Origin: Minisyncoccota bacterium
GTDB taxonomy: Bacteria; Patescibacteriota; Minisyncoccia; Phycocordibacterales; Phycocordibacteraceae
Assembly: GCA_018062765.1 (NCBI GenBank)
Contig: JAGORR010000001.1
Span: 78,638 to 142,637, forward strand
DNA: 64,000 nucleotides
Direction of reading: 5' to 3'
Shown here: positions 3,024 through 30,556 of the stretch, in pieces
Position numbering within the stretch: the first letter of the stretch is position 1
Layout of the letters: each line of letters starts with the position of its first letter
Notes under the pieces: model-generated
Told to the model about the DNA's origin: nothing
The model's database searches: none
What the model saw: only the letters and a program-made list of their open reading frames with translations
Made by a program: the position numbers and the translations under genes

Positions 3024-4852
3024 GGACGGCGGTCCTGGTCCGCTTCAGCAGCGAGCCGTTGTTTTTCCCGTTTGATTGAAAGAATCTGAGAAGGGTCCGA
3101 GGTGATTATCTGGTCCTCCGTGTATGAGGCGACAACCTTGATGGCAACATGCTTGAGGCCAGCAAAGAATAGCCCGTCCCCCACCCCAGCCTCTAGTAGG
3201 AGGAATTTTTCCTGGTCAGTAAGGTTGAATGTTTGCTTCAGGAGATCAATCGTCGTTGGCGACTGCTTCAAAAGAAGCTGCATGGAAGAGTTTGTGAGTA
3301 TCGGGCGCCCATATGGTGAGCGGAGGAAGTCCTCGACGTCCTGGGTAACGGTTGCGAGCCCTAAATAGTATTTACGACCGCGCTTGGCGAGACTGTAGAG
3401 GAATGACGCGGTGTCATCCGATTTCATCATCCACCAAGCCTCGTCGATGACGAGAAGACGCTTTCTCAGCTCGCGCCGTACGGCGTTCCAGATGTAGTGC
3501 GTAATGATATACATCGCAACCGGTTTCAGTTCATCCTCCATATCACGCACCGAGAAGACGATGAACTGCTTATTGATATCGATATTCGTCGGCTGATTCA
3601 GGAAGCCGGCCCAAGTACCCTTTGTGTATTTCGACAGACGCGTCACGAGGGATTCGCTTCCCTCCATCCCGGAGAGTACTGATTCGAAATCCGATAGGAG
3701 CGGTGCGTCCATCCCAGTGAAGTCGCGATTCCCGGTGATGTCCTTAAGGGCATAGGTTTCCGTAATAGCGCGATCGATGATGGCGTCCTCCTCCGGCGTG
3801 AGTCCCCCGAGCATGATGCGGAAGAGACCGACGAGGTTGATGATGACCGAACGCAATATGTCGTTTGGCTCCTCCCCTTCCCGCACGGGCGGAAGATCGA
3901 AAGGATTGATGTGATGCTCCGAGGAAAGCGAGATGTTGAAAAGGCGGCCGCCTGTTGCCTCCGCAAGGTATTCGTACTCGCGCTCAGGGTCGATGACGAT
4001 GACTTCTGTATCGAACATAAGCGAACGGAGAATTTCGAGCTTCACTGCGTAGGATTTTCCGGAGCCCGACTTCGCGAATACGACCGAGTTGTAGTTCTCT
4101 AGAGAGAATCGGTCGAAGAGGACGAGGGATGAGTTGTGGCGGTTGATGCCGTAGAGGATGCCCTTATCGGAGGTGAGGTCGTAGGAGACGAACGGGAATA
4201 GAGAAGAGAGAGGTGAGGTATTGAGTTTCGAATGGACGCCTAGCTCGTCGAGCTCCAGGGGAAGCGTTGAGCGGAAGCCCTGCTCCTGCTGGAATATCGC
4301 AGGCTTTGTGTATACGAGTTTAGCGTCGAGGATACCTCGTAATTTTCCTTCAAGATTATCGAGCTCGTCCTTACTGTCTGCGTAAATGGTTAGGTACAGT
4401 CCGACCTCAAACAAGCGCTCCTGTGCCTGCTGCAGCTGGTCCCGTAGACGCTCCAGGTCCTGGTATGAGGTATCGAGCATTGGGTCGCGCACAAGACCTT
4501 TTTGCGCGCGGTCGGCCTGCTGGCTCTCCACTTCCGCGACTTTCTTCTGGAACTGGCGAAGGATCTGGCCCGTCTCTATGGGGTGGATGAAGATGCCGAC
4601 ATCGAATACTTGGTCCAAATTAATAACCGGGGAAAACCAGTCGTCGGACAAAAACCGCGGATACGAGATGGTGTAAAAGGAGCGCGCAAACTTGGCGCCA
4701 AGCTCCAATTCCCTGCCGGTGACCTTGAGTGCTGCTGGCGCGATAGTGTCCGCCAGGTCTAAGGCTCCCTCTGCATAGATATCCTTAGGAAGCACAGACG
4801 CGATGTCTGGCGCCTCTTCTTTCTTACGGTTAAGGAAATCGAGGAGTGCCAT
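3020..4852 (-). CDS. virB4: VirB4/TrsE-type type IV secretion ATPase
   Basis: Walker A FAKSGSGKSYAV and Walker B RLLVIDEAWWMM, with the layout of Gram-positive VirB4-type conjugation ATPases. Start set at ATG 4852 (MALLDFLNRK), because the 14 extra codons of the tracked ORF (to 4894) lie inside a heptamer-repeat spacer. Confidence 0.85.
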   Translation of the reverse strand: MALLDFLNRKKEEAPDIASVLPKDIYAEGALDLADTIAPAALKVTGRELELGAKFARSFYTISYPRFLSDDWFSPVINLDQVFDVGIFIHPIETGQILRQFQKKVAEVESQQADRAQKGLVRDPMLDTSYQDLERLRDQLQQAQERLFEVGLYLTIYADSKDELDNLEGKLRGILDAKLVYTKPAIFQQEQGFRSTLPLELDELGVHSKLNTSPLSSLFPFVSYDLTSDKGILYGINRHNSSLVLFDRFSLENYNSVVFAKSGSGKSYAVKLEILRSLMFDTEVIVIDPEREYEYLAEATGGRLFNISLSSEHHINPFDLPPVREGEEPNDILRSVIINLVGLFRIMLGGLTPEEDAIIDRAITETYALKDITGNRDFTGMDAPLLSDFESVLSGMEGSESLVTRLSKYTKGTWAGFLNQPTNIDINKQFIVFSVRDMEDELKPVAMYIITHYIWNAVRRELRKRLLVIDEAWWMMKSDDTASFLYSLAKRGRKYYLGLATVTQDVEDFLRSPYGRPILTNSSMQLLLKQSPTTIDLLKQTFNLTDQEKFLLLEAGVGDGLFFAGLKHVAIKVVASYTEDQIITSDPSQILSIKREKQRLAAEADQDRRP

Positions 4853-4860
4853 ACTAGAAG

Positions 4861-4944
4861 TAGCGTACAGGTGACAGCGTGCAGCGTACAGCAAAAGCGG
4901 TGCAGGAGTGTTCAGTCTGGACGCTAGCCGCTAGACGCTTCATA
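4861..4944. repeat. 7-nt periodic tract filling the spacer upstream of virB4-like gene
   Basis: Read in register: TAGCGTA CAGGTGA CAGCGTG CAGCGTA CAGCAAA AGCGGTG CAGGAGT GTTCAGT CTGGACG CTAGCCG CTAGACG CTTCATA. Confidence 0.8.
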
Positions 4945-5577
4945 TCATTTTGTAAGCCTTATCGGGCTATCGAGCTCGCCGATGTTGAATGAGCGGTAGA
5001 GAAGCTCGATGATTTCCTCAGTGCCTAGGGGTACTGCGCGAATACCGGCCGAGTTTATGGCGCCTGCAGCCAGGGACATGCGCTGCTCGAGCTGGATGCG
5101 ATGCTCAGCGAATGCGTCGTTCCCTTCCCCGCCAGACCCGGATGACGGAGTGCGCTGGAGGAACGCGAGCGCACTCTTCACTTCCGAACCCGAGCCAGGT
5201 GCCAAAGGAACGACGATGTAGAATGTCTTCGTCATGATGTTTGCTTGATCAGCGAACGCGCGGACGAATTCCATGTATTCGCGTACCTGTATCTTCATGA
5301 GCTCGGTTTCCTGCTTATCTGTGCGCTCCTGAAGGAGTGCTAGGTACGGCCGGATATCCATGCGGCGGGAGTGCACAACAAGCTCCACGGAAAAATCGAG
5401 CGAATTGAGGAAGGTCTGGAATCCGCCGATGACCGCCCGCTGCTCGTCGTCGGATTTCAAGGAGAAGTTCACTGATGAGCACATGAGTATGCCCCGATAC
5501 GTGCCGTCCTTAAGGATGATGACCCCATTACGGACCTCCTTTACTGGAACAAACGACTGAGATGCTTTAGGCGCCAT
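4945..5577 (-). CDS. hypothetical protein, T4SS-associated
   Basis: 210 aa with an 11-nt overlap with the PrgI-like gene. The N-terminal pattern VPVKEVRNGVIILKDGTYRGILMCSSVNFSLKSDDEQ recalls the pre-ATPase region of Gram-positive VirB4 proteins (recollection, not a search). Confidence 0.6.
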   Translation of the reverse strand: MAPKASQSFVPVKEVRNGVIILKDGTYRGILMCSSVNFSLKSDDEQRAVIGGFQTFLNSLDFSVELVVHSRRMDIRPYLALLQERTDKQETELMKIQVREYMEFVRAFADQANIMTKTFYIVVPLAPGSGSEVKSALAFLQRTPSSGSGGEGNDAFAEHRIQLEQRMSLAAGAINSAGIRAVPLGTEEIIELLYRSFNIGELDSPIRLTK

Positions 5578-23269: not shown

Positions 23270-24733
23270 CTAGCAAACGTTGTGCTTCTCGAGGATGCGC
23301 CGTACTTCCAACTCCTCCTCAATCTCGCGACGTTTTTTGCCGGACTCCCCCATGTCCTTTAGCTCACTGTCCTTTAGAGCAAGTAATTCCCCTGCCCTAC
23401 TATCCATATACTCCTCCGTATTCTTCTCAGGATCGATAAGTACCTCCTCCAAGAGTGCATTTAAAGTCCACCCAATGCGCGGACCAGGTTCCACGTGAAA
23501 GCGGCTCATAAGACGTCTACCGTCAGTCTTAAGCATTGCTACGGATATCGGGTCGCGAAGCGCCTGTTCAACCATGGCCTTGTACTTACGGAAACGAAAA
23601 GGCTGCTCTTTAGGGCGGCCAGTACCTATGCGGTCACATATCCTAAGGTTCAACAGATCCCAAATATTCTCCTCCCCTACGTTCACAATCATCCGGCGGA
23701 CAGCGGACAGCGATATTTGGTCAGGGTCGGAGAAGAACATGTGCCAGCGTACTAGTTTCACAACTTTTGAGATAGTTTCCCGTGAAAACCGGAGGTCCTC
23801 TAGAGCTTTGCGTGTTACACGTGAACCAACTACCTCGTGTCCGTGGAAAGTCCAGTCCTGTTTCTCTTCGGACCAACGCCTAGTGTCTGGCTTAGCGATA
23901 TCGTGGAATAGGGCAGAAAGGCGTATATCGAAGCCCCATCCCTTGTCTGCGGCGTGCTGCATGCTTCGCATAAGATGCTCGAACACGTCGTAGCTGTGTG
24001 CCTGATTTTGCGCCACGCCGACGGACTGCGGCAAATCAGGAACTATATGTGGCAACAAACCGAGCTGCAGAGCCAAGGTGAATGCCATCATTGGCTGGTC
24101 AGACATGAGGATTCGGGTAAGTTCATCCCGAACCCTTTCACGTGAAATAGCCCCTAGATTGCTAGCTTTTTCGCTTATTGCAGCCGCAGTTTCGCCATCT
24201 AGGACAAATCCAAGCTCTGCGACGAGGCGTATAGCCCGCATAAGGCGCAGTCCGTCTTCCTCAAATCGGATGCTAGGTACTCCTACGGCCCGGAGAACCT
24301 TGGCTTTCAGGTCTACTTGTCCTTTATAGGGGTCTACGATGTGTCCTTTAGAGTCGTCCAGGGCTATGGCGTTCACGGTGAAGTCCCGGCGAGCGAGGTC
24401 ATCCTCGAGGCTCTCGCCGAATATGACTTCGTCCGGCCGGCGCTTATCGGAGTACCCGGTCTCGGTTCGATATGGGGTCACCTCGACAACTGCCGTTGTC
24501 TCGTCCTCAGACCCGGTCTTTACCCCGACTGTCCCGAACTCGTTTTCGTAAAAGGAGTCGGGGAAGACTCTTTGGATGTCTCCTGGCTTTGCGTTGGTGG
24601 TGACATCCCAATCCTTGGGCTTTCGATTGAGCAATAGATCACGTACACAGCCGCCCACCAGGTAGGCCTCGAAGCCTGCATTGCGCAAGTCCCCGGCGAC
24701 CTTCTCTACTACGTTTGGAATAGGGAAGTGCAT
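23270..24733 (-). CDS. cca: CCA-adding tRNA nucleotidyltransferase with HD domain
   Basis: GGCVRDLLLNRKPKDWDVTT head domain and FHDIAKP HD motif. Confidence 0.9.
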   Translation of the reverse strand: MHFPIPNVVEKVAGDLRNAGFEAYLVGGCVRDLLLNRKPKDWDVTTNAKPGDIQRVFPDSFYENEFGTVGVKTGSEDETTAVVEVTPYRTETGYSDKRRPDEVIFGESLEDDLARRDFTVNAIALDDSKGHIVDPYKGQVDLKAKVLRAVGVPSIRFEEDGLRLMRAIRLVAELGFVLDGETAAAISEKASNLGAISRERVRDELTRILMSDQPMMAFTLALQLGLLPHIVPDLPQSVGVAQNQAHSYDVFEHLMRSMQHAADKGWGFDIRLSALFHDIAKPDTRRWSEEKQDWTFHGHEVVGSRVTRKALEDLRFSRETISKVVKLVRWHMFFSDPDQISLSAVRRMIVNVGEENIWDLLNLRICDRIGTGRPKEQPFRFRKYKAMVEQALRDPISVAMLKTDGRRLMSRFHVEPGPRIGWTLNALLEEVLIDPEKNTEEYMDSRAGELLALKDSELKDMGESGKKRREIEEELEVRRILEKHNVC

Positions 24734-24799
24734 AACAATATTCTACGGCATGACCTAGCGCGCTTCCTAAATGAATTATATGATTGTGTGTATAGAACT

Positions 24800-25462
24800 A
24801 TGAAAGAGAAAGTTCAGCATAAGAAATACGCGACTGATTTGCGACTAGCAGGGAGCACCTATTCGGAGATACTCGCGCAAGTCCCTGTTTCGCGTGGCAC
24901 ATTATCAGCGTGGCTTAGTGATGTTCCTCTACCGGAGAACGTGGTAAAGCACCTCTCCGCCAATCGGCGAGCGAGGGTCAGTCAGGCAAGAAGAAGGGAA
25001 GCGACGGTCCGGAAAGCGGCAGCGATAGTTCGCCGCGGATTCGCTGAAAAAGGTGCAAAAAAGGAATTCGAAAGACACTCGAAGGAACCCTTTTTCCTGG
25101 CCGGTCTCGGTCTTTATCTTGGTGGCGGGACCTTTGGGAAGGCATCCTTCTCGTACATGTCCGGGGAGGAGCGCCAGATAGCGCTAATGGTCCGCTGGGC
25201 TAAGGAATACCTTGCCCACGAGAGTCGTATAGCGCTCCGACTCTATCTGCCGCCCTCCATGGACCTCGGATCTGCCCGTGTGCACTGGTCCAAGGCCACC
25301 GGGCTCCCTGCAGCAGCCTTCAAGAAGGCGGTGATGACGAAGGAAAGGGCCAGAAAACCTAGTAATTACGCGGGTATTGCCCGATTGGAGCTTACGGGTG
25401 GCAGGGCAGCGCTTCGTGTGCGCGTGTGGCTGGATATGCTTGTTGTGCGCTATGCGGAATAA
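24800..25462 (+). CDS. HTH protein with degenerate LAGLIDADG-like domain
   Basis: N-terminal YSEILAQVPVSRGTLSAWL (HTH), then FFLAGLGLYLGGGTFGK ... VHWSKATGLPAAAFKK. Resembles a homing-endonuclease-like family I recall from Actinobacteria/CPR. Start set at ATG 24800. Confidence 0.55.
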   Translation: MKEKVQHKKYATDLRLAGSTYSEILAQVPVSRGTLSAWLSDVPLPENVVKHLSANRRARVSQARRREATVRKAAAIVRRGFAEKGAKKEFERHSKEPFFLAGLGLYLGGGTFGKASFSYMSGEERQIALMVRWAKEYLAHESRIALRLYLPPSMDLGSARVHWSKATGLPAAAFKKAVMTKERARKPSNYAGIARLELTGGRAALRVRVWLDMLVVRYAE

Positions 25463-25481
25463 AGCTAGTGTTTACCTCAGG

Positions 25482-25553
25482 CTCCGATAGTGAAATGGAT
25501 ATCACATCAGTCTTCGGAACTGACGTTCCAGGTTCGAATCCTGGTCGGAGCAC
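25482..25553 (+). tRNA. tRNA-Arg (anticodon TCG), no encoded CCA
   Basis: Hand fold: acceptor GCTCCGA/TCGGAGC, D GTGA/TCAC, anticodon stem TCAGT/ACTGA with loop CTTCGGA, T arm CCAGG-TTCGAAT-CCTGG, discriminator A. Confidence 0.9.
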
Positions 25554-25555
25554 AG

Positions 25556-25747
25556 AAAGCAGCAAACCCGAGCTTACGCTTGGGTTTGCTGCTTTCTGGC
25601 TCAAGGCCAGGATTCGAAAGACGGAGTCGGTATACAAGCGAGCGAAGCGAGGCTTGAGACGATGAAAGCTGCCGGGGGTCGCTTTCATGGGTCGCGGAAA
25701 TCCCGCGTAGAGGGATTATCCGTGACCGAATCCTGGTCGGAGCACAC
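25556..25747 (+). other. tRNA-Arg-trailing unit: 15-bp hairpin plus 5'-truncated tRNA-Arg copy with 120-nt T-loop
   Basis: Hairpin GAAAGCAGCAAACCC/GGGTTTGCTGCTTTC (25556-25597). CCAGG-ATTCGAAAG at 25608. Exact 20-nt repeat of the tRNA 3' end (25536-25555) at 25728-25747. Confidence 0.8.
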
Positions 25748-25793
25748 TAAGAATTGAAGAAAAGGCATAGCTATGGGAATATAGAGCCCGTAG

Positions 25794-25864
25794 CGGCTAT
25801 GGTTTAGTGGTAGAACGCGTCCTTGCCAAGGACGAGTCGGGAGTTCGATTCTCCCTAGCCGCAC
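25794..25864 (+). tRNA. tRNA-Gly (anticodon GCC), no encoded CCA
   Basis: Acceptor GCGGCTA/TAGCCGC, anticodon stem CGTCC/GGACG with loop TTGCCAA, T arm GGGAG-TTCGATT-CTCCC. Confidence 0.9.
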
Positions 25865-25865
25865 T

Positions 25866-25990
25866 AAGAAAAGCGAAGCTTTGCGTGTACAGACGAGGGA
25901 GGATCGAAGGCCGGAGCGCGGCGGCGCGAGGCGAGGTCGCGGCCATTTTCAGAAGAAAATGAGCTGTGACCGATTCTCCCTAGCCGCACC
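25866..25990 (+). other. tRNA-Gly-trailing unit: 5'-truncated tRNA-Gly copy with 74-nt T-loop
   Basis: GACGA-GGGAG-GATCGAAGG at 25893. Exact 19-nt repeat of the tRNA 3' end (25847-25865) at 25972-25990, here followed by CCA. Confidence 0.8.
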
Positions 25991-25996
25991 AGAGCG

Positions 25997-26028
25997 AAAA
26001 GCGCCCGGAAGGGCGCTTTTCGTTTATA
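25997..26028 (+). terminator. intrinsic terminator of the tRNA transcription unit
   Basis: GAAAAGCGCCC-ggaa-GGGCGCTTTTC followed by GTTTAT. Confidence 0.7.
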
Positions 26029-26085
26029 GACAATAGGGGATAACTACCTACCTCTCCCTTGAACGCATAATTTCTAGGCCATTTC

Positions 26086-26114
26086 TTGGTGTTGACTTCA
26101 TGAAATGGTATAAT
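26086..26114 (+). promoter_or_regulatory. sigma70-type promoter with extended -10
   Basis: TTGGTG, 17-nt spacer, TGgTATAAT (26106-26114). Confidence 0.5.
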
Positions 26115-26120
26115 CCTAGA

Positions 26121-26355
26121 GCCTCGCAAGGGGTGGCAGGTATGGTCAGGTATCGGGACGAAAGTCGTTGCGTAAGCACAGCTCTAGTGGTCGGTACTTG
26201 TAAGGTCGAAAGACCTCGAGTACCTGCCAGTGGAGCTGTTTTCGTGGGCCCGCGGAACCAGTTTGAGCCCTCCACGGGTTAGCGATGAACCTGCACCTCG
26301 AATTTCGCGGTGTCGCTGGTCGACAAGATACCAGCATCGTAATCTTGGTCAAAAC
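26121..26355 (+). ncRNA. candidate structured leader/ncRNA (family unknown)
   Basis: 8-bp closing helix GGCAGGTA (26135-42) / TACCTGCC (26221-28) enclosing two GAAA-tetraloop hairpins (GAC-GAAA-GTC, AGGTC-GAAA-GACCT). Further nested helices (GTGGA..GGGC..GCCC-TCCAC; AGCGA..TCGCT). No credible ORF. Confidence 0.3.
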
Positions 26356-26759: not shown

Positions 26760-27371
26760 ATGAAGCGGTACGCATTTATAGATGTCGAAAATACGGCCAC
26801 GACAGCCGAAGATATGCTTGGCTTTGTCGTTGATTGGTCAAAAGTGGCTGATTTCCTCAAGAATGTGAAAAGTTGTACAGAAGTGTTCTACTACACGGCT
26901 ATAGAGACTGGTGATGCCCAGAAGGCGGCAGAGTTCGAGGCGATCGATAAAACTGCCTGCTGCGTTGTTAGGGCGAAACAAAAGATGCTCTATAAGCGTA
27001 AGGACAAGTATCTTTCTTTCACGTGCTCAAAGTGCGGGGAACCCGGCAATAAAAGCATTGACATGGGGTACAACGTCAAAGGTAACTGCGATGTTGAATT
27101 AACGGTGGATGCTCTCGAGCATGGAGAGAAAGATAACGAATTTTACATATTCACGGGCGACGGTGATTTCGAGTACCTAGCTATAAAGCTTATGGAGCGG
27201 GGCGTTAAGGTCGTGTTTGTTTCTCACGCAAAAGTGATTCAGAGGGCTGGTCAGCCCTATGGACGGTATTCAAAAAAGCTTAGAGATCTTGTTGCTGCCA
27301 ACCCGACCCACCTCTCTTTCCAAGAACTAGATAATTGGAAGAAGAAATTTGAGCGCGTAATTGTGCCGTAA
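26760..27371 (+). CDS. NYN/LabA-like domain protein with inserted CxxC zinc-ribbon-like segment
   Basis: YAFIDVENT ... FTGDGDFEYLAIKLMERG (NYN), with inserted FTCSKCGEPGNKSIDMGYNVKGNC. Confidence 0.7.
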   Translation: MKRYAFIDVENTATTAEDMLGFVVDWSKVADFLKNVKSCTEVFYYTAIETGDAQKAAEFEAIDKTACCVVRAKQKMLYKRKDKYLSFTCSKCGEPGNKSIDMGYNVKGNCDVELTVDALEHGEKDNEFYIFTGDGDFEYLAIKLMERGVKVVFVSHAKVIQRAGQPYGRYSKKLRDLVAANPTHLSFQELDNWKKKFERVIVP

Positions 27372-27562: not shown

Positions 27563-28450
27563 CTATACTTTCGAGAGCAATACGGTTCCGAGGAGCGCAG
27601 AAAACCGCTGACTGTCGCTGTGTCGGTTGTTCCAATGGAACGAATACGCATCTAGATACCCCTGAAGGTGTCGCTTCGACACCACCTTATACGTCCCCCG
27701 AAGAGAGCGCTTCACGTGCGCCCAATACGCCTCAATAGTGTTTATGTAGATTGGGCCTCGCGCCCATTCTTTCTTTGAGTGATTCACCATGTATCGCTCG
27801 TAGCCTATAGCTACATTGTCTAGGGTCTTAGTAGCGTCAGTCATGAGCGCGGTGCCTTCCTCCTCAACGTTTTCCCGAAGAAACCGGCCGTGGGTATCTG
27901 CGCCTATGTCGGGTACGACCTTGGTGCGTACCTCGCCGTTTCGCTGTACCGCGCCTATAACCGGGGACTTAGCCCTAATGTTCCTGCTCTGGTGCATATT
28001 GTCCTTCCCGCCGTCACCCTTGCCGCCCATATAGGTGCTATCCACCTCGACAACCCCCGACAGCTTCTTGGGAGTCTGTTTCCCGAGGGATTCGCGGATC
28101 AGTTTCAGCATTCGCCACGCCGTCTTATAGGTCACTTCAAGCTGTCGCTCCATCTCCTTAGCTGAAATGCCGCTCTTGGCGTTAGAAAAGACCCACAGGG
28201 CATGGAACCAGAGGGAAAGGGGAGTATCTGACTTATGGAAGATCGTGCCTGCTGTAGGGGCTATCTGGAACCTACACTTGGAGCATTGATACTGTTTCCG
28301 GCCTGAAATGCGCCTGTAGGTACCACCACAGGAGCACTCCCGGCTGTGGAGGGAATCGAAAATGAAGTCCAGACAGACCGCGTCGGTCGGGAAATCACGT
28401 TTTAGGGAAGATAGGCCGTATTTACTCATTATTCTCACTCTATCGGACAT
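27563..28450 (-). mobile_element. IS1595-family transposase gene (element ends not defined)
   Basis: N-terminal Zn ribbon CSCGGTYRRISGRKQYQCSKCRF and an ISXO2-like DDE region (VVEVDSTYMGG, LMTDATKTLD, NTIEAYWAHVKR). Terminal inverted repeats not found by eye. Confidence 0.75.
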
Positions 28451-28973: not shown

Positions 28974-29074
28974 CAATGCTAGGATGGCCCATATAGGACG
29001 TTGGCCTATGTGTATGGGCGGTGAGCTAGGGTCATTATGTGCCGGAGTAGCTTGGGTGGGTTAAATCATTTGGT

Positions 29075-29148
29075 CGGGCCGTCGTATACCGGTAGTACGC
29101 TTGGTTTGGGACCAAGATGACCGGGTTCGATTCCCGGCGGCCCGACCA
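29075..29148 (+). tRNA. tRNA-Pro (anticodon TGG) with encoded CCA
   Basis: Acceptor CGGGCCG/CGGCCCG, anticodon stem CTTGG/CCAAG with loop TTTGGGA, T arm CCGGG-TTCGATT-CCCGG, ACCA end. Flanked by a perfect 14-bp leader/trailer complement (29061-29074 / 29145-29158). Confidence 0.85.
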
Positions 29149-29191
29149 AATGATTTAACGGCTCTCTGGGAGAGAGCCAAGGTCCGGAGGA

Positions 29192-29324
29192 AAGATGACC
29201 GGGACGACCCCTTACAGGGGCGGTATACCTTTCGGATATTTTGCATCGCAAGCTCGCAAATTATCTCGAAAGGTCTTGCGAACGCTCCAAGCATTCGCGT
29301 TCTCACCCGGCGGCCCGACCAAAT
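29192..29324 (+). other. tRNA-Pro-trailing unit: 5'-truncated tRNA-Pro copy with 102-nt T-loop
   Basis: AAGATGACCGGG (tRNA 29114-29125) is repeated at 29192-29203. CCCGGCGGCCCGACCAAAT (29133-29151) is repeated exactly at 29306-29324. Confidence 0.8.
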
Positions 29325-30484: not shown

Positions 30485-30485
30485 G

Positions 30486-30556
30486 TGCGGGATAGGAGAA
30501 TCGAACTCCTGCTAGCAGTTTGGAAAACTGCAGTTCTACCATTAAACTAATCCCGC
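30486..30556 (-). tRNA. tRNA-Gly (anticodon TCC), no encoded CCA
   Basis: Reverse complement folds as GCGGGAT..ATCCCGC, anticodon stem GCAGT/ACTGC with loop TTTCCAA, T arm AGGAG-TTCGATT-CTCCT. Confidence 0.9.

Follow-up and report, generated by a model that had tools for sequence, protein, structure and literature searches.

Transfer RNA (tRNA) genes in genomes of the Patescibacteria, also known as the Candidate Phyla Radiation (CPR), are often followed by short, structured units that repeat the 3' end of the gene they trail. Here, we describe these units in a 64,000-nucleotide stretch of a Minisyncoccota genome (GenBank assembly GCA_018062765.1, contig JAGORR010000001.1, positions 78,638 to 142,637), referred to below as the window, and in other genomes. 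Three of the four tRNA genes in the window, those for Arg, Gly(GCC), and Pro, are each trailed by an exact copy of their own 3' end, from which a structured insert separates them. We tentatively favor, with a little less than even confidence, the reading that the trailers are protein-less elements of ~105-190 bp that target the T-loop/3' end of tRNA and transfer-messenger RNA (tmRNA) genes, duplicate it, and need a single-strand fold. The elements are widespread in Patescibacteria. Relative to the empty sites of related genomes, a unit is an insertion that leaves the tRNA intact, and units have been gained or lost between close relatives, stacked in tandem, nested within one another, and left to decay. 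Full-text literature searches found no description of the element, and the family is apparently undescribed as far as the databases and literature that we searched reach.

Trailers of three tRNA genes in the window

ARAGORN and Rfam agree that tRNA-Arg and tRNA-Gly(GCC) are intact, as had been stated in a preliminary description of this DNA made from the sequence alone. In what follows, C1 denotes the repeated 3' end within the tRNA gene and C2 its downstream copy (coordinates in Table 1). The repeat is exact over 20 nt at tRNA-Arg, where it lies within a 25-nt match at 92%, and over 19 of 19 nt at both tRNA-Gly(GCC) and tRNA-Pro; the preliminary description had the extent of the Arg and Gly repeats right, placed them 1 nt too high, and correctly saw the same design at a third tRNA. 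In the Arg and Gly units, the repeat starts at C56 of the T-loop. Ahead of the core of each unit lies a left arm that can pair with the repeat (helix P1). Positions 25607-25616 of the Arg arm are complementary at 10 of 10 positions to 25727-25736, which correspond to tRNA positions 56-65, and further pairing is possible between GCTC of this arm and GAGC of the acceptor 3' strand. The feature previously taken for a copy of the T-stem 5' strand does exist, and is better described as the complement of tRNA positions 56-65; the proposed order of T-stem, huge loop, T-stem, and acceptor 3' strand is correct. The Pro unit contains a second direct repeat, AAGATGACCGGG, at 29114-29125 and again at 29192-29203, and CCGGG of its arm pairs with CCCGG of the Pro C2.

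The insert of the Gly unit is the canonical short form of what we call family A. Its P2 helix consists of P2a (GCC/GGC), an internal loop (GGA/GA), and P2b (GCGC-GGCG-GCGC), and its P3 reads GGUCGCGG-CCAUUUUC-AGAA-GAAAAUG-A-GCUGUGAC. The Arg core, which has an ortholog in L006 (L numbers denote loci), holds an additional ~36-nt insert with partial duplication (GGGGGUCGC...GGGUCGCGG) and is for this reason probably damaged. The hairpin that had been reported between tRNA-Arg and its trailer is real: it forms the center of a 41-nt, 80% inverted repeat (25533-25573 / 25578-25618) that joins the tRNA-Arg 3' end to the arm. The three trailers fold considerably more strongly than shuffled sequence (z = -6.35, -6.26, and -3.28). 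There is no T tract between tRNA and core in the Arg and Gly units, and the earlier proposal that the trailers are co-transcribed with their tRNAs holds in the window, although it does not extend to the family as a whole (see below). Gene-finder searches with ARAGORN and Rfam, a check of the kind that had been suggested, see no second tRNA in the window trailers.

Beside the Pro unit, we also observed that a perfect 15-nt inverted repeat brackets tRNA-Pro (29060-29074, GTTAAATCATTTGGT; 29145-29159, ACCAAATGATTTAAC), lengthening the acceptor stem past the discriminator and CCA to an overall 25-nt, 96% inverted repeat. It was not seen in L002 or L003, and may be a processing stem.

The region 25440-26100 is identical in two other assemblies of the same organism, three altogether, so that the repeats are not an artefact of assembly, as the preliminary description had asked to be checked. 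The same architecture occurs in >100 independent genomes, complete chromosomes among them. As a separate observation, Logan short-read contigs of L001, L006, L007, L008, and L009 repeatedly stop in or beside the tRNA-Arg/Gly locus; such breaks would be explained by multicopy, assembly-breaking elements.

Family A forms a covarying three-way junction

A covariance model (R1) was built from a 29-sequence seed alignment whose consensus fold was obtained with RNAalifold. The core consensus is (arm)NN-UCG-AAAG-N-CGGAG-[hairpin]-CGAG-N'-CGGGGUCGCG-[hairpin]-YGUGAC-CGA-NN-(T-stem 3' strand, acceptor 3' strand), and the predicted fold is a three-way junction of P1, P2, and P3. P1 is the arm paired with the repeat copy, and is followed by J1/2 (GAAA); P2 comprises P2a (G-N-C / G-N'-C, with N covarying), the GGA/GA internal loop, and P2b, a variable hairpin; J2/3 is GG; and P3 is GGUCGC.../...GUGACC, variable at its top and interrupted by a bulged A. 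The boundary on the right, ...GUGAC|C56, coincides exactly with the helix junction, and no linker intervenes. On the window, R1 scores 93.5 bits (E 1e-26; 25892-25987) for the Gly trailer and 40.1 bits (E 3.7e-10) for the Arg trailer; a single model thus recognizes both inserts, which bears out the earlier claim of their homology. R1 does not match the Pro trailer.

Over the fetched loci, R1 finds 123 + 31 = 154 copies, and the proposed search of related genomes has accordingly shown that the trailers recur. In the 123-sequence alignment, paired cells amount to 94.0% compared with 70.6% in shuffles, both-side changes occur in 25 of 29 pairs, and the covariation score is 0.558 vs 0.154 for shuffled alignments and 0.06-0.09 for slid partners, so the covariation test that had also been recommended comes out clearly positive. 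At one position of P3, 116 of 120 sequences have a G·U pair. Counts of GU+UG against AC+CA are 205:12 in P3, 19:4 in P2, and 25:23 in P1. The near-invariant G·U and the wobble excess in P2 and P3 indicate that it is the tRNA-sense strand that folds, whether as RNA or as single-stranded DNA (ssDNA), and P1, which has no wobble bias, behaves unlike the core helices. The junction nucleotides and the bulged A are conserved at 94-99%, and about 30 near-invariant nucleotides lie in the junctions and helix bases. Low-scoring, decayed copies of family A are numerous.

Units follow tRNA and tmRNA genes across the Patescibacteria

A scan with a degenerate motif pattern, run over one genome per GTDB species, returned at least 119 loci, nearly all of them patescibacterial. 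Among the matches listed, Saccharibacteria, Paceibacteria/Parcubacteria, and Nomura-, Kaiser-, Zambryski-, Campbell-, Taylor-, and Falkowbacteria dominate. Good family-A matches were also present in metagenome-assembled genomes (MAGs) labelled Elusimicrobia or Gammaproteobacteria (L029, L053, L072, L069, and L076), labels that are as deposited; these may be mis-binned CPR contigs or genuine occurrences outside the CPR. Pattern matches in Sorangium, Pyrinomonadaceae, Solirubrobacteraceae, Erythrobacter, and Planctomycetota were rejected as chance because they lie inside open reading frames (ORFs) and fail the covariance model.

A tRNA gene on the same strand lies upstream of 95 of the 123 R1 copies, at a median gap of 50 nt and with 33 anticodons represented, and the orientation of family A relative to the tRNA is 95:0. 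Other copies without a tRNA call from ARAGORN sit at contig ends, and at least five trail tmRNA (ssrA) genes (L025, L032, L035, L074, and L123), duplicating the tmRNA 3' end in like manner. Altogether, 90 of 224 tRNA genes (about 40%) at the loci sampled have a unit.

In 75 of 126 pattern-defined copies, 12 nt or more of the downstream tRNA-like segment recur exactly upstream, typically from CGA (C56) onward. The repeats are spaced 106-191 bp apart in nearly all of these 75 measurable cases, and the duplication is 12-23 nt, sometimes longer. The outliers were an interval of 852 bp in L061 and one of 1121 bp in L047 that contains two more tRNA genes; no integrase was recognized in either of these large intervals, nor between the repeats at any typical locus. 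C1 and C2 agree at 18 of 18 positions in 40 of 100 copies, and many other C2 segments have retained no more than their first 8-12 nt, which are the ones engaged in P1.

The arm is complementary to tRNA positions 56-6x, over up to 18 nt in some copies, and is a target-specific inverted arm rather than a fixed terminal repeat; the sequence of the P1 duplex is that of the double-stranded target from position 56 onward. A T-stem-equivalent helix is present in nearly all copies. Likeness of the arm to the acceptor 5' strand, which gives a full minihelix, was seen in about 15-20%, and upstream of the arm there is no likeness to the tRNA variable side beyond chance. When the core was removed in silico, ARAGORN called a tRNA in 1 of 115 cases. 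The trailers are therefore not in general 5'-truncated tRNA copies, as had been suggested, although the Pro trailer of the window is an exception.

The stretch from tRNA to arm often holds a long hairpin reaching into the tRNA 3' end, and a terminator-like stem with a T tract separates tRNA from core in 47 of 98 copies, compared with 26 of 134 tRNAs without an element. It is these hairpins that keep co-transcription from applying family-wide, and their enrichment fits an element that supplies a 3' end plus terminator and is a poor fit for an RNA needing read-through. CCA follows C2 in 14 of 53 scorable copies; it occurs past C2 only in 8 and past C1 only in 4.

Filled and empty sites in relatives

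Gene order around the tRNA locus is kept in relatives, whose distance from the window is given here as identity of the CCA-adding enzyme. In L002 (86%), trailers lie behind the same Arg, Gly, and Pro genes, and in L006 (85%) behind Arg and Gly, the contig stopping short of the Pro locus. L003-L005 and L009 (79%) have the same syntenic tRNAs with no trailers, and are empty sites, whereas L124, which is far more distant, again has trailers behind Arg, Gly, and Pro in the same synteny. The presence of units is therefore patchy.

Past the Gly C2, the sequence ...GCACCAGAG (CCAGAG) with its GCGCC...GGCGC terminator is the sequence found directly past tRNA-Gly in the empty site of L009, which identifies the Gly C2 and its flank as ancestral chromosome. 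The CCA that had been noted past the second Gly copy is thus real, and it is ancestral; because the empty site already encodes CCAGAG, the CCA is no evidence for a retro-copied mature tRNA, and we reject that origin for the Gly unit. A unit lying between copies that start at C56 is, by circular permutation, equivalent to an insertion at 55/56 that brings its own replacement 3' end.

Other cores, tandem units, and nested units

Scanning all tRNAs of the loci for downstream copies of their own 3' ends turned up trailers with other cores. Family C can be written as arm-UCGAAG-[long hairpin]-GUACUG-[hairpin with CUGUAAG]-CGA-copy (L014, L028, L038, L056, L073, L081, and L114). The insert of the window Pro unit defines family B, with homologs in L024 (also behind tRNA-Pro TGG), L059, L082, L019, and L051. 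Family B aligns to family-C members in reverse complement, and B/C cores occur in both orientations; their stems show double changes in 10 of 14 pairs, in an alignment of 8 sequences only. In L082 (about 4790-5080), a family-A unit encloses a B/C core, which runs opposite to the core of the window Pro unit. Units of differing subtypes stand in tandem behind one tRNA or tmRNA gene in L037 (1336-1660), L066 (4080-4500), and L032. In a further variant, P1 is formed from the last ~5 nt of the tRNA only (left end GTGCGA, right end ..GACCACA; L002 Arg, L066, and L101).

We also observed a recurrent mini-hairpin of 12-14 nt (for example, AAGTGTACTCACG and GGTGTAATCACC) that follows GTGACCGA and separates CGA from the remainder of the tRNA 3' copy (L015, L016, L026, L037, L061, L091, and L096). 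With this hairpin past CGA, the junction becomes four-way.

Searches against known families

Searching the window with Rfam 15 at the gathering score returned tRNAs only, and at E <= 10 over 25400-26300 just hairpin-like noise matches to microRNA models. The 856 neighboring ORFs were clustered, and the recurring families are housekeeping only. A hammerhead-like permutation, considered by eye, was rejected since the CUGAUGA element is absent, and a K-turn because its layout of a 3-nt bulge plus tandem G·A is missing from the GGA/GA loop. Flip/flop isomers like those of adeno-associated virus (AAV) were rejected for family A on the basis of its 95:0 orientation. With regard to integron attC sites, there are no cassette ORFs at the loci (IntI elsewhere in the genomes was not searched for), and the family-A consensus ends in ..NNUCG / CGANN.. 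with GGUCGC/GUGACC, not in the attC core sites RYYYAAC / GTTRRRY. The nearest paper that we found concerns group I introns of CPR tRNAs, which sit at position 35/36 in the anticodon loop (PMC13011429).

Features of the window and neighboring genes

Table 1. Positions in the window of the tRNA genes, the parts of the three units, and adjoining features (C1, repeated tRNA 3' end; C2, downstream copy)
Feature	Position	Strand	Remarks
CCA-adding enzyme gene	23270-24733	minus	Adjoins tRNA-Arg/Gly cluster; product 100% identical to a 'Candidatus Pacebacteria' MAG protein
tRNA-Arg(TCG), intact	25481-25553	+	ARAGORN and Rfam; C1 = 25535-25554
Hairpin H1 of Arg unit	25556-25597	+	19-nt arms, TTAC loop, no T tract after
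Left arm of Arg unit	25598-25616	+	GGCTCAAGGCCAGGATTCG; pairs with either repeat copy (P1)
Family-A core, Arg copy	25617-25726	+	AAAG; P2 a long CCGGUAUAC-type variant; P3 GGUCGCGG...CCGUGAC
C2 of Arg unit	25727-25746	+	Exact tRNA-Arg positions 56-73 plus CA
tRNA-Gly(GCC), intact	25793-25864	+	ARAGORN and Rfam; C1 = 25846-25864
Left arm of Gly unit	25897-25906	+	GGGAGGATCG; complementary to CGATTCTCCC, one G·U
Family-A core, Gly copy (canonical short form)	25907-25970	+	J1/2 AAG; J2/3 GA
C2 of Gly unit	25971-25989	+	Exact tRNA-Gly positions 56-74; then CAGAG and terminator
Terminator-like hairpin past Gly unit	25995-26022	+	12-bp perfect stem, GGAA loop, T-rich tail
tRNA-Pro(TGG), intact	29075-29148	+	ARAGORN and Rfam; C1 = 29133-29151
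Hairpin between tRNA-Pro and trailer	29160-29178	+	GGCTCTCT-GGG-AGAGAGCC
Left arm of Pro unit	29192-29203	+	AAGATGACCGGG; 12/12 direct copy of tRNA-Pro variable-loop/T-stem 5' side
Family-B core, Pro unit	29204-29305	+	CCCCUUACAGGGG, CGGUAUACCUUUCGG...CGAAAGGUCUUGCG, additional hairpin
C2 of Pro unit	29306-29324	+	T-stem 3' strand, acceptor 3' strand, ACCA, AAT
tRNA-Gly(TCC), intact	30485-30556	minus	ARAGORN and Rfam; fourth tRNA of the window

Directly upstream of tRNA-Arg lies a 244-aa ORF (24728-25462, + strand) with a helix-turn-helix-like N-terminus and a LAGLIDADG-like motif, FFLAGLGLYLGGG; Pfam, NCBIfam, and PDB searches assigned it to no family. Homologs stand beside tRNA genes in L002, L006, L008, and L009 and at five scan loci, trailer-free sites included, and the ORF is not generally linked to the elements (5 of ~110 loci). 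Just past the Gly-unit terminator, at about 26085-26113 (+ strand), there is a near-consensus promoter, TTGACT-N17-TATAAT, followed by a strongly folding region of ~150 nt (z = -4.84; 26085-26262) in a segment absent from L002 and L003. This region matches nothing in Rfam, has no homolog among the loci fetched, and may be an unannotated small RNA or leader. Between the Arg/Gly cluster and yraN stand two further genes, one for an NYN-domain protein (26760-27371) and the other for a transposase of the IS1595 family (27563-28450, minus strand). Because both are absent at that position in L002 and L003, this segment is a separate insertion beside the trailers, and the IS1595-family transposase is not linked to elements elsewhere. 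In terms of a miniature inverted-repeat transposable element (MITE), then, we find inverted arms that are target-specific and a window transposase whose insertion those two relatives lack.

Discussion

Of the three explanations offered in the preliminary description, the data best support the first, a small tRNA-targeting element with target duplication, given the tight size range, the empty sites, the tandem, nested, and decayed copies, the occurrence at 33 anticodons and tmRNA, and the lack of an integrase between the repeats at typical loci. On this account, the folded single strand would be a cis-acting substrate for insertion and/or maintenance, present either as ssDNA during replication or DNA uptake or as read-through RNA, and mobilization would occur in trans, carried out by a recombinase of the host or through homologous recombination once natural transformation has brought in DNA. 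One conceivable route is that a folded single-stranded site recombines, its P1 duplex matching the target from position 56, by the logic of CTX-phage/Xer or of integron attC. Another is host homologous recombination after DNA uptake, for which the tRNA gene and the trailing copy could act as two built-in homology arms. Some re-templating from the target must occur, since the arm and both copies match each of at least 33 tRNA types while core subfamilies are shared.

Several observations weigh against such a mobile element. No integrase, recombinase, transposase, HUH, or reverse transcriptase gene is enriched within 3.5 kb of 110 elements. The family-A core was not found in IMG/VR, where two matches were due to chance inside a phage ORF, or by BLAST in phage and plasmid collections, and no autonomous partner or vehicle is known. 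Simple cut-and-paste cannot explain the units, because their arms and 3'-end copies are tRNA-specific and subfamilies are common to different tRNA types, and we know of no mechanism that templates such target-matched arms. A G·U bias of this strength is typical of RNA rather more than of DNA. Among relatives, most differences between the Gly cores of the window, L002, and L006 are compensatory pair changes. The 3' segment of tRNA-Arg has changed at five positions between the window and L006, and C2 and the arm have changed alike (CGAATCCTGGTCGGAGCACA twice vs CGAATCCTGACGGACGCACA twice; arm CCAGG vs TCAGG). Such compensatory differences, and a C2 and arm that track tRNA-Arg, suggest selection in situ unless turnover or gene conversion is frequent. 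Finally, neither filled/empty polymorphism at the population level nor an excision junction was observed.

These points lead directly to the main rival, that of a noncoding RNA with a function for the host, which we regard as a serious possibility even if an unlikely one, and to which the functional minihelix mimic of the preliminary description belongs. Arm, core, and C2 would be read through from the tRNA promoter and form a three-way junction with a closing helix that mimics a T-arm; tRNA-processing enzymes would then release an RNA that might be a ribozyme, a protein-binding RNA, or a decoy of the tRNA top half, or the tRNA-like helix could be a processing and stability scaffold for differing cores (A and B/C). 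The strong covariation and the about 30 near-invariant nucleotides are what one would expect of such an RNA, as are the invariant G·U with its large sense-strand wobble excess, the 95:0 co-orientation of family A with the tRNA, and the compensatory differences between orthologs in which C2 remains identical to an evolving tRNA. A full minihelix in some copies (about 15-20%), the absence of a terminator between tRNA and core in the window and in about half of copies, and the lack of mobility genes nearby point the same way. However, terminator-like hairpins precede the core in 47 of 98 copies and are enriched over the tRNA baseline, and close relatives manage without elements. Decayed, tandem, and nested copies, B/C cores in both orientations, and a P1 without wobble bias (25 vs 23) are likewise awkward for a host RNA, which gives no reason for the 3' tail beyond P1 to equal the neighboring tRNA or for matched copies to exist at 33 or more tRNA types. 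A further rival, which we consider improbable, keeps mobility and makes it nucleic-acid-guided or self-catalyzed, with target specificity written in the arm. It could be modeled as a small ribozyme or guide RNA whose arm would pair with tRNA positions 56-6x and which would cleave or ligate at the P3/P1 junction (55/56) or, by analogy with integron attC and CTX-phage attP, as a folded ssDNA attachment (att) site that would be recombined by a host Xer-type recombinase. The placement of ...GUGAC|C56 exactly at the three-way junction, the identity of the P1 duplex with the target from position 56, the complementarity of the arm to the tRNA over up to 18 nt, the strand-specific fold, and the absence of a linked protein gene all suit this idea, and these genomes all carry an Xer-like recombinase, which in the window lies 3.4 kb away. 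Yet no ribozyme or other RNA family of Rfam matches even at E <= 10, both the catalysis and the link to the recombinase are hypothetical, and the Xer gene is also present in empty-site relatives; moreover, an arm paired to C2 would mask the guide, and retargeting would require joint change of the arm and the 3'-end copy.

The remaining explanations fare worse. Direct repeats of tRNA 3' ends that start in the T-loop are the classic signature of integrase crossover in tRNA and tmRNA genes, and tmRNA genes are among the targets of the units too. The units might thus be ordinary att scars, left by islands or prophages that had entered at the T-loop sublocation and whose interior was then lost. We consider this very improbable and the reading largely refuted. 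The repeat from C56 does fit, but the intervals are of uniform size (106-191 bp) and hold neither a recombinase nor a kilobase-scale element, the interior covaries in a compensatory manner that is unexpected for double-stranded protein-binding arms, and the same core serves at least 33 tRNA types. Only the large intervals of L061 (852 bp) and L047 (1121 bp) hold other material, in which no integrase was recognized, and the core is absent from the viral, phage, and plasmid collections searched; the preliminary description was therefore right to set plain att scars aside. It had also raised an intron-like insertion in a dead gene copy. Either a T-loop intron or a 5'-truncated dead tRNA copy with such an insertion would agree with the T-stem/loop/T-stem/acceptor parse and with the 12-nt direct copy of the variable-loop/T-stem side in the Pro trailer, and CPR tRNA genes do carry group I introns, though at 35/36 (PMC13011429). 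However, an intact, uninterrupted tRNA always precedes the unit, splicing in silico restores a tRNA call in 1 of 115 cases, likeness to the variable side upstream of the arm is not beyond chance, and among the genomes seen none had a sole tRNA copy bearing the core in its T-loop. Introns of groups I and II were rejected outright, as the cores of 60-110 nt are far below their size (at least ~200 nt) and there is no Rfam intron match, and we judge the whole family of intron explanations highly unlikely. An origin in assembly error or chance repeats might be suspected from the frequent breaks of short-read contigs at these loci; it deserves almost no credence and is refuted by the three identical assemblies and by hundreds of independent copies, complete chromosomes included, besides the three exact 19-20-nt repeats that lie within 4 kb in the window.

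Genomes of CPR bacteria are tiny and streamlined, and yet about 40% of the tRNA genes at the sampled loci (90/224) bear units, a proportion that makes the units a major unannotated noncoding class over a large part of the bacterial tree. If they are mobile, they represent a new way to use the most conserved genes as landing pads, enzyme-free and with the gene unharmed, and the matching of the arm to each tRNA hints at target-templated or base-pair-guided insertion. If they act as RNA, family A is a new, deeply conserved three-way-junction RNA and a candidate ribozyme or protein-binding module. A base-pair-guided or self-catalyzed mechanism, if true, would be categorically new. We think it rather unlikely, but worth stating, that the units are either a mobile or self-propagating nucleic acid free of protein genes that is guided by base pairing, cuts and joins at 55/56 as RNA or as folded ssDNA, and has its arms and 3'-end copies re-templated from each new target, or a tRNA top-half scaffold from which CPR bacteria express several unrelated catalytic or regulatory RNA cores. 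Practical consequences are broken short-read assemblies at tRNA loci, the risk of taking a unit for an att scar or a pseudo-tRNA, and a possible use of the units as markers of CPR strain dynamics.

Comparison with known systems

Like the genomic islands and prophages that use tRNA and tmRNA genes, and the cis-mobilizable elements (CIMEs) derived from these by deletion, the units have a 3'-end direct repeat from the T-loop, leave the gene intact by a replacement 3' end, often supply a terminator, target tmRNA genes, and occur in tandem. They differ in being 105-190 bp long, with no integrase found nearby and no large parent element, and in having a covarying single-strand interior instead of double-stranded arm sites, a target-complementary arm, and one core for at least 33 tRNAs. 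With integron attC and the CTX-phage attP(+) site, the latter a user of XerCD, they share a strand-specific, imperfect fold with a bulged base, a distal part in which structure is kept over sequence, a stem that mimics the double-stranded target, and a recombinase gene that is dispensable in the element, the logic of integrative mobile elements exploiting Xer (IMEX). Unlike attC and attP(+), the units have no R''/R' core sites (RYYYAAC/GTTRRRY) and no dif-like site, target the T-loop, and combine a three-way junction with about 30 invariant nucleotides and no link to an integron integrase.

Among short repeats, Correia/NEMIS, the RPE of Rickettsia, REP/BIME, and the IS200/IS605-derived PATEs resemble the units in being short, noncoding, multicopy, structured, and patchy; nested or decayed copies and broken short-read assemblies are further likenesses. 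These repeats, in contrast, have fixed terminal sequences, short or no target duplication, and no target-matched arms, and they are not confined to tRNA/tmRNA 3' ends. tRNA-like modules such as mascRNA/MALAT1, plant mitochondrial t-elements, viral tRNA-like structures, and small RNAs of the 3'ETS-leuZ type also place a T-arm-equivalent helix, sometimes with the acceptor stem, beside a tRNA gene, and by analogy the units could be recognized by tRNA-processing enzymes. In the units, however, a junction domain of 60-110 nt stands in place of the T-loop, the neighboring tRNA is copied exactly in the helix, and a terminator often lies ahead. The inverted terminal repeats of parvoviruses and AAV, which are nicked by an HUH Rep protein, offer an analogy only: a long stem closed by two small hairpins, with a nick or boundary at the stem. 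Family A differs from them in having no flip/flop isomers (95:0), no Rep gene, and no sequence relationship. Nearest in kind to the units are the integrative elements of tRNA genes and the structured miniature repeats, from which the units are set apart by their target-matched arms, their junction fold, and the absent enzyme.

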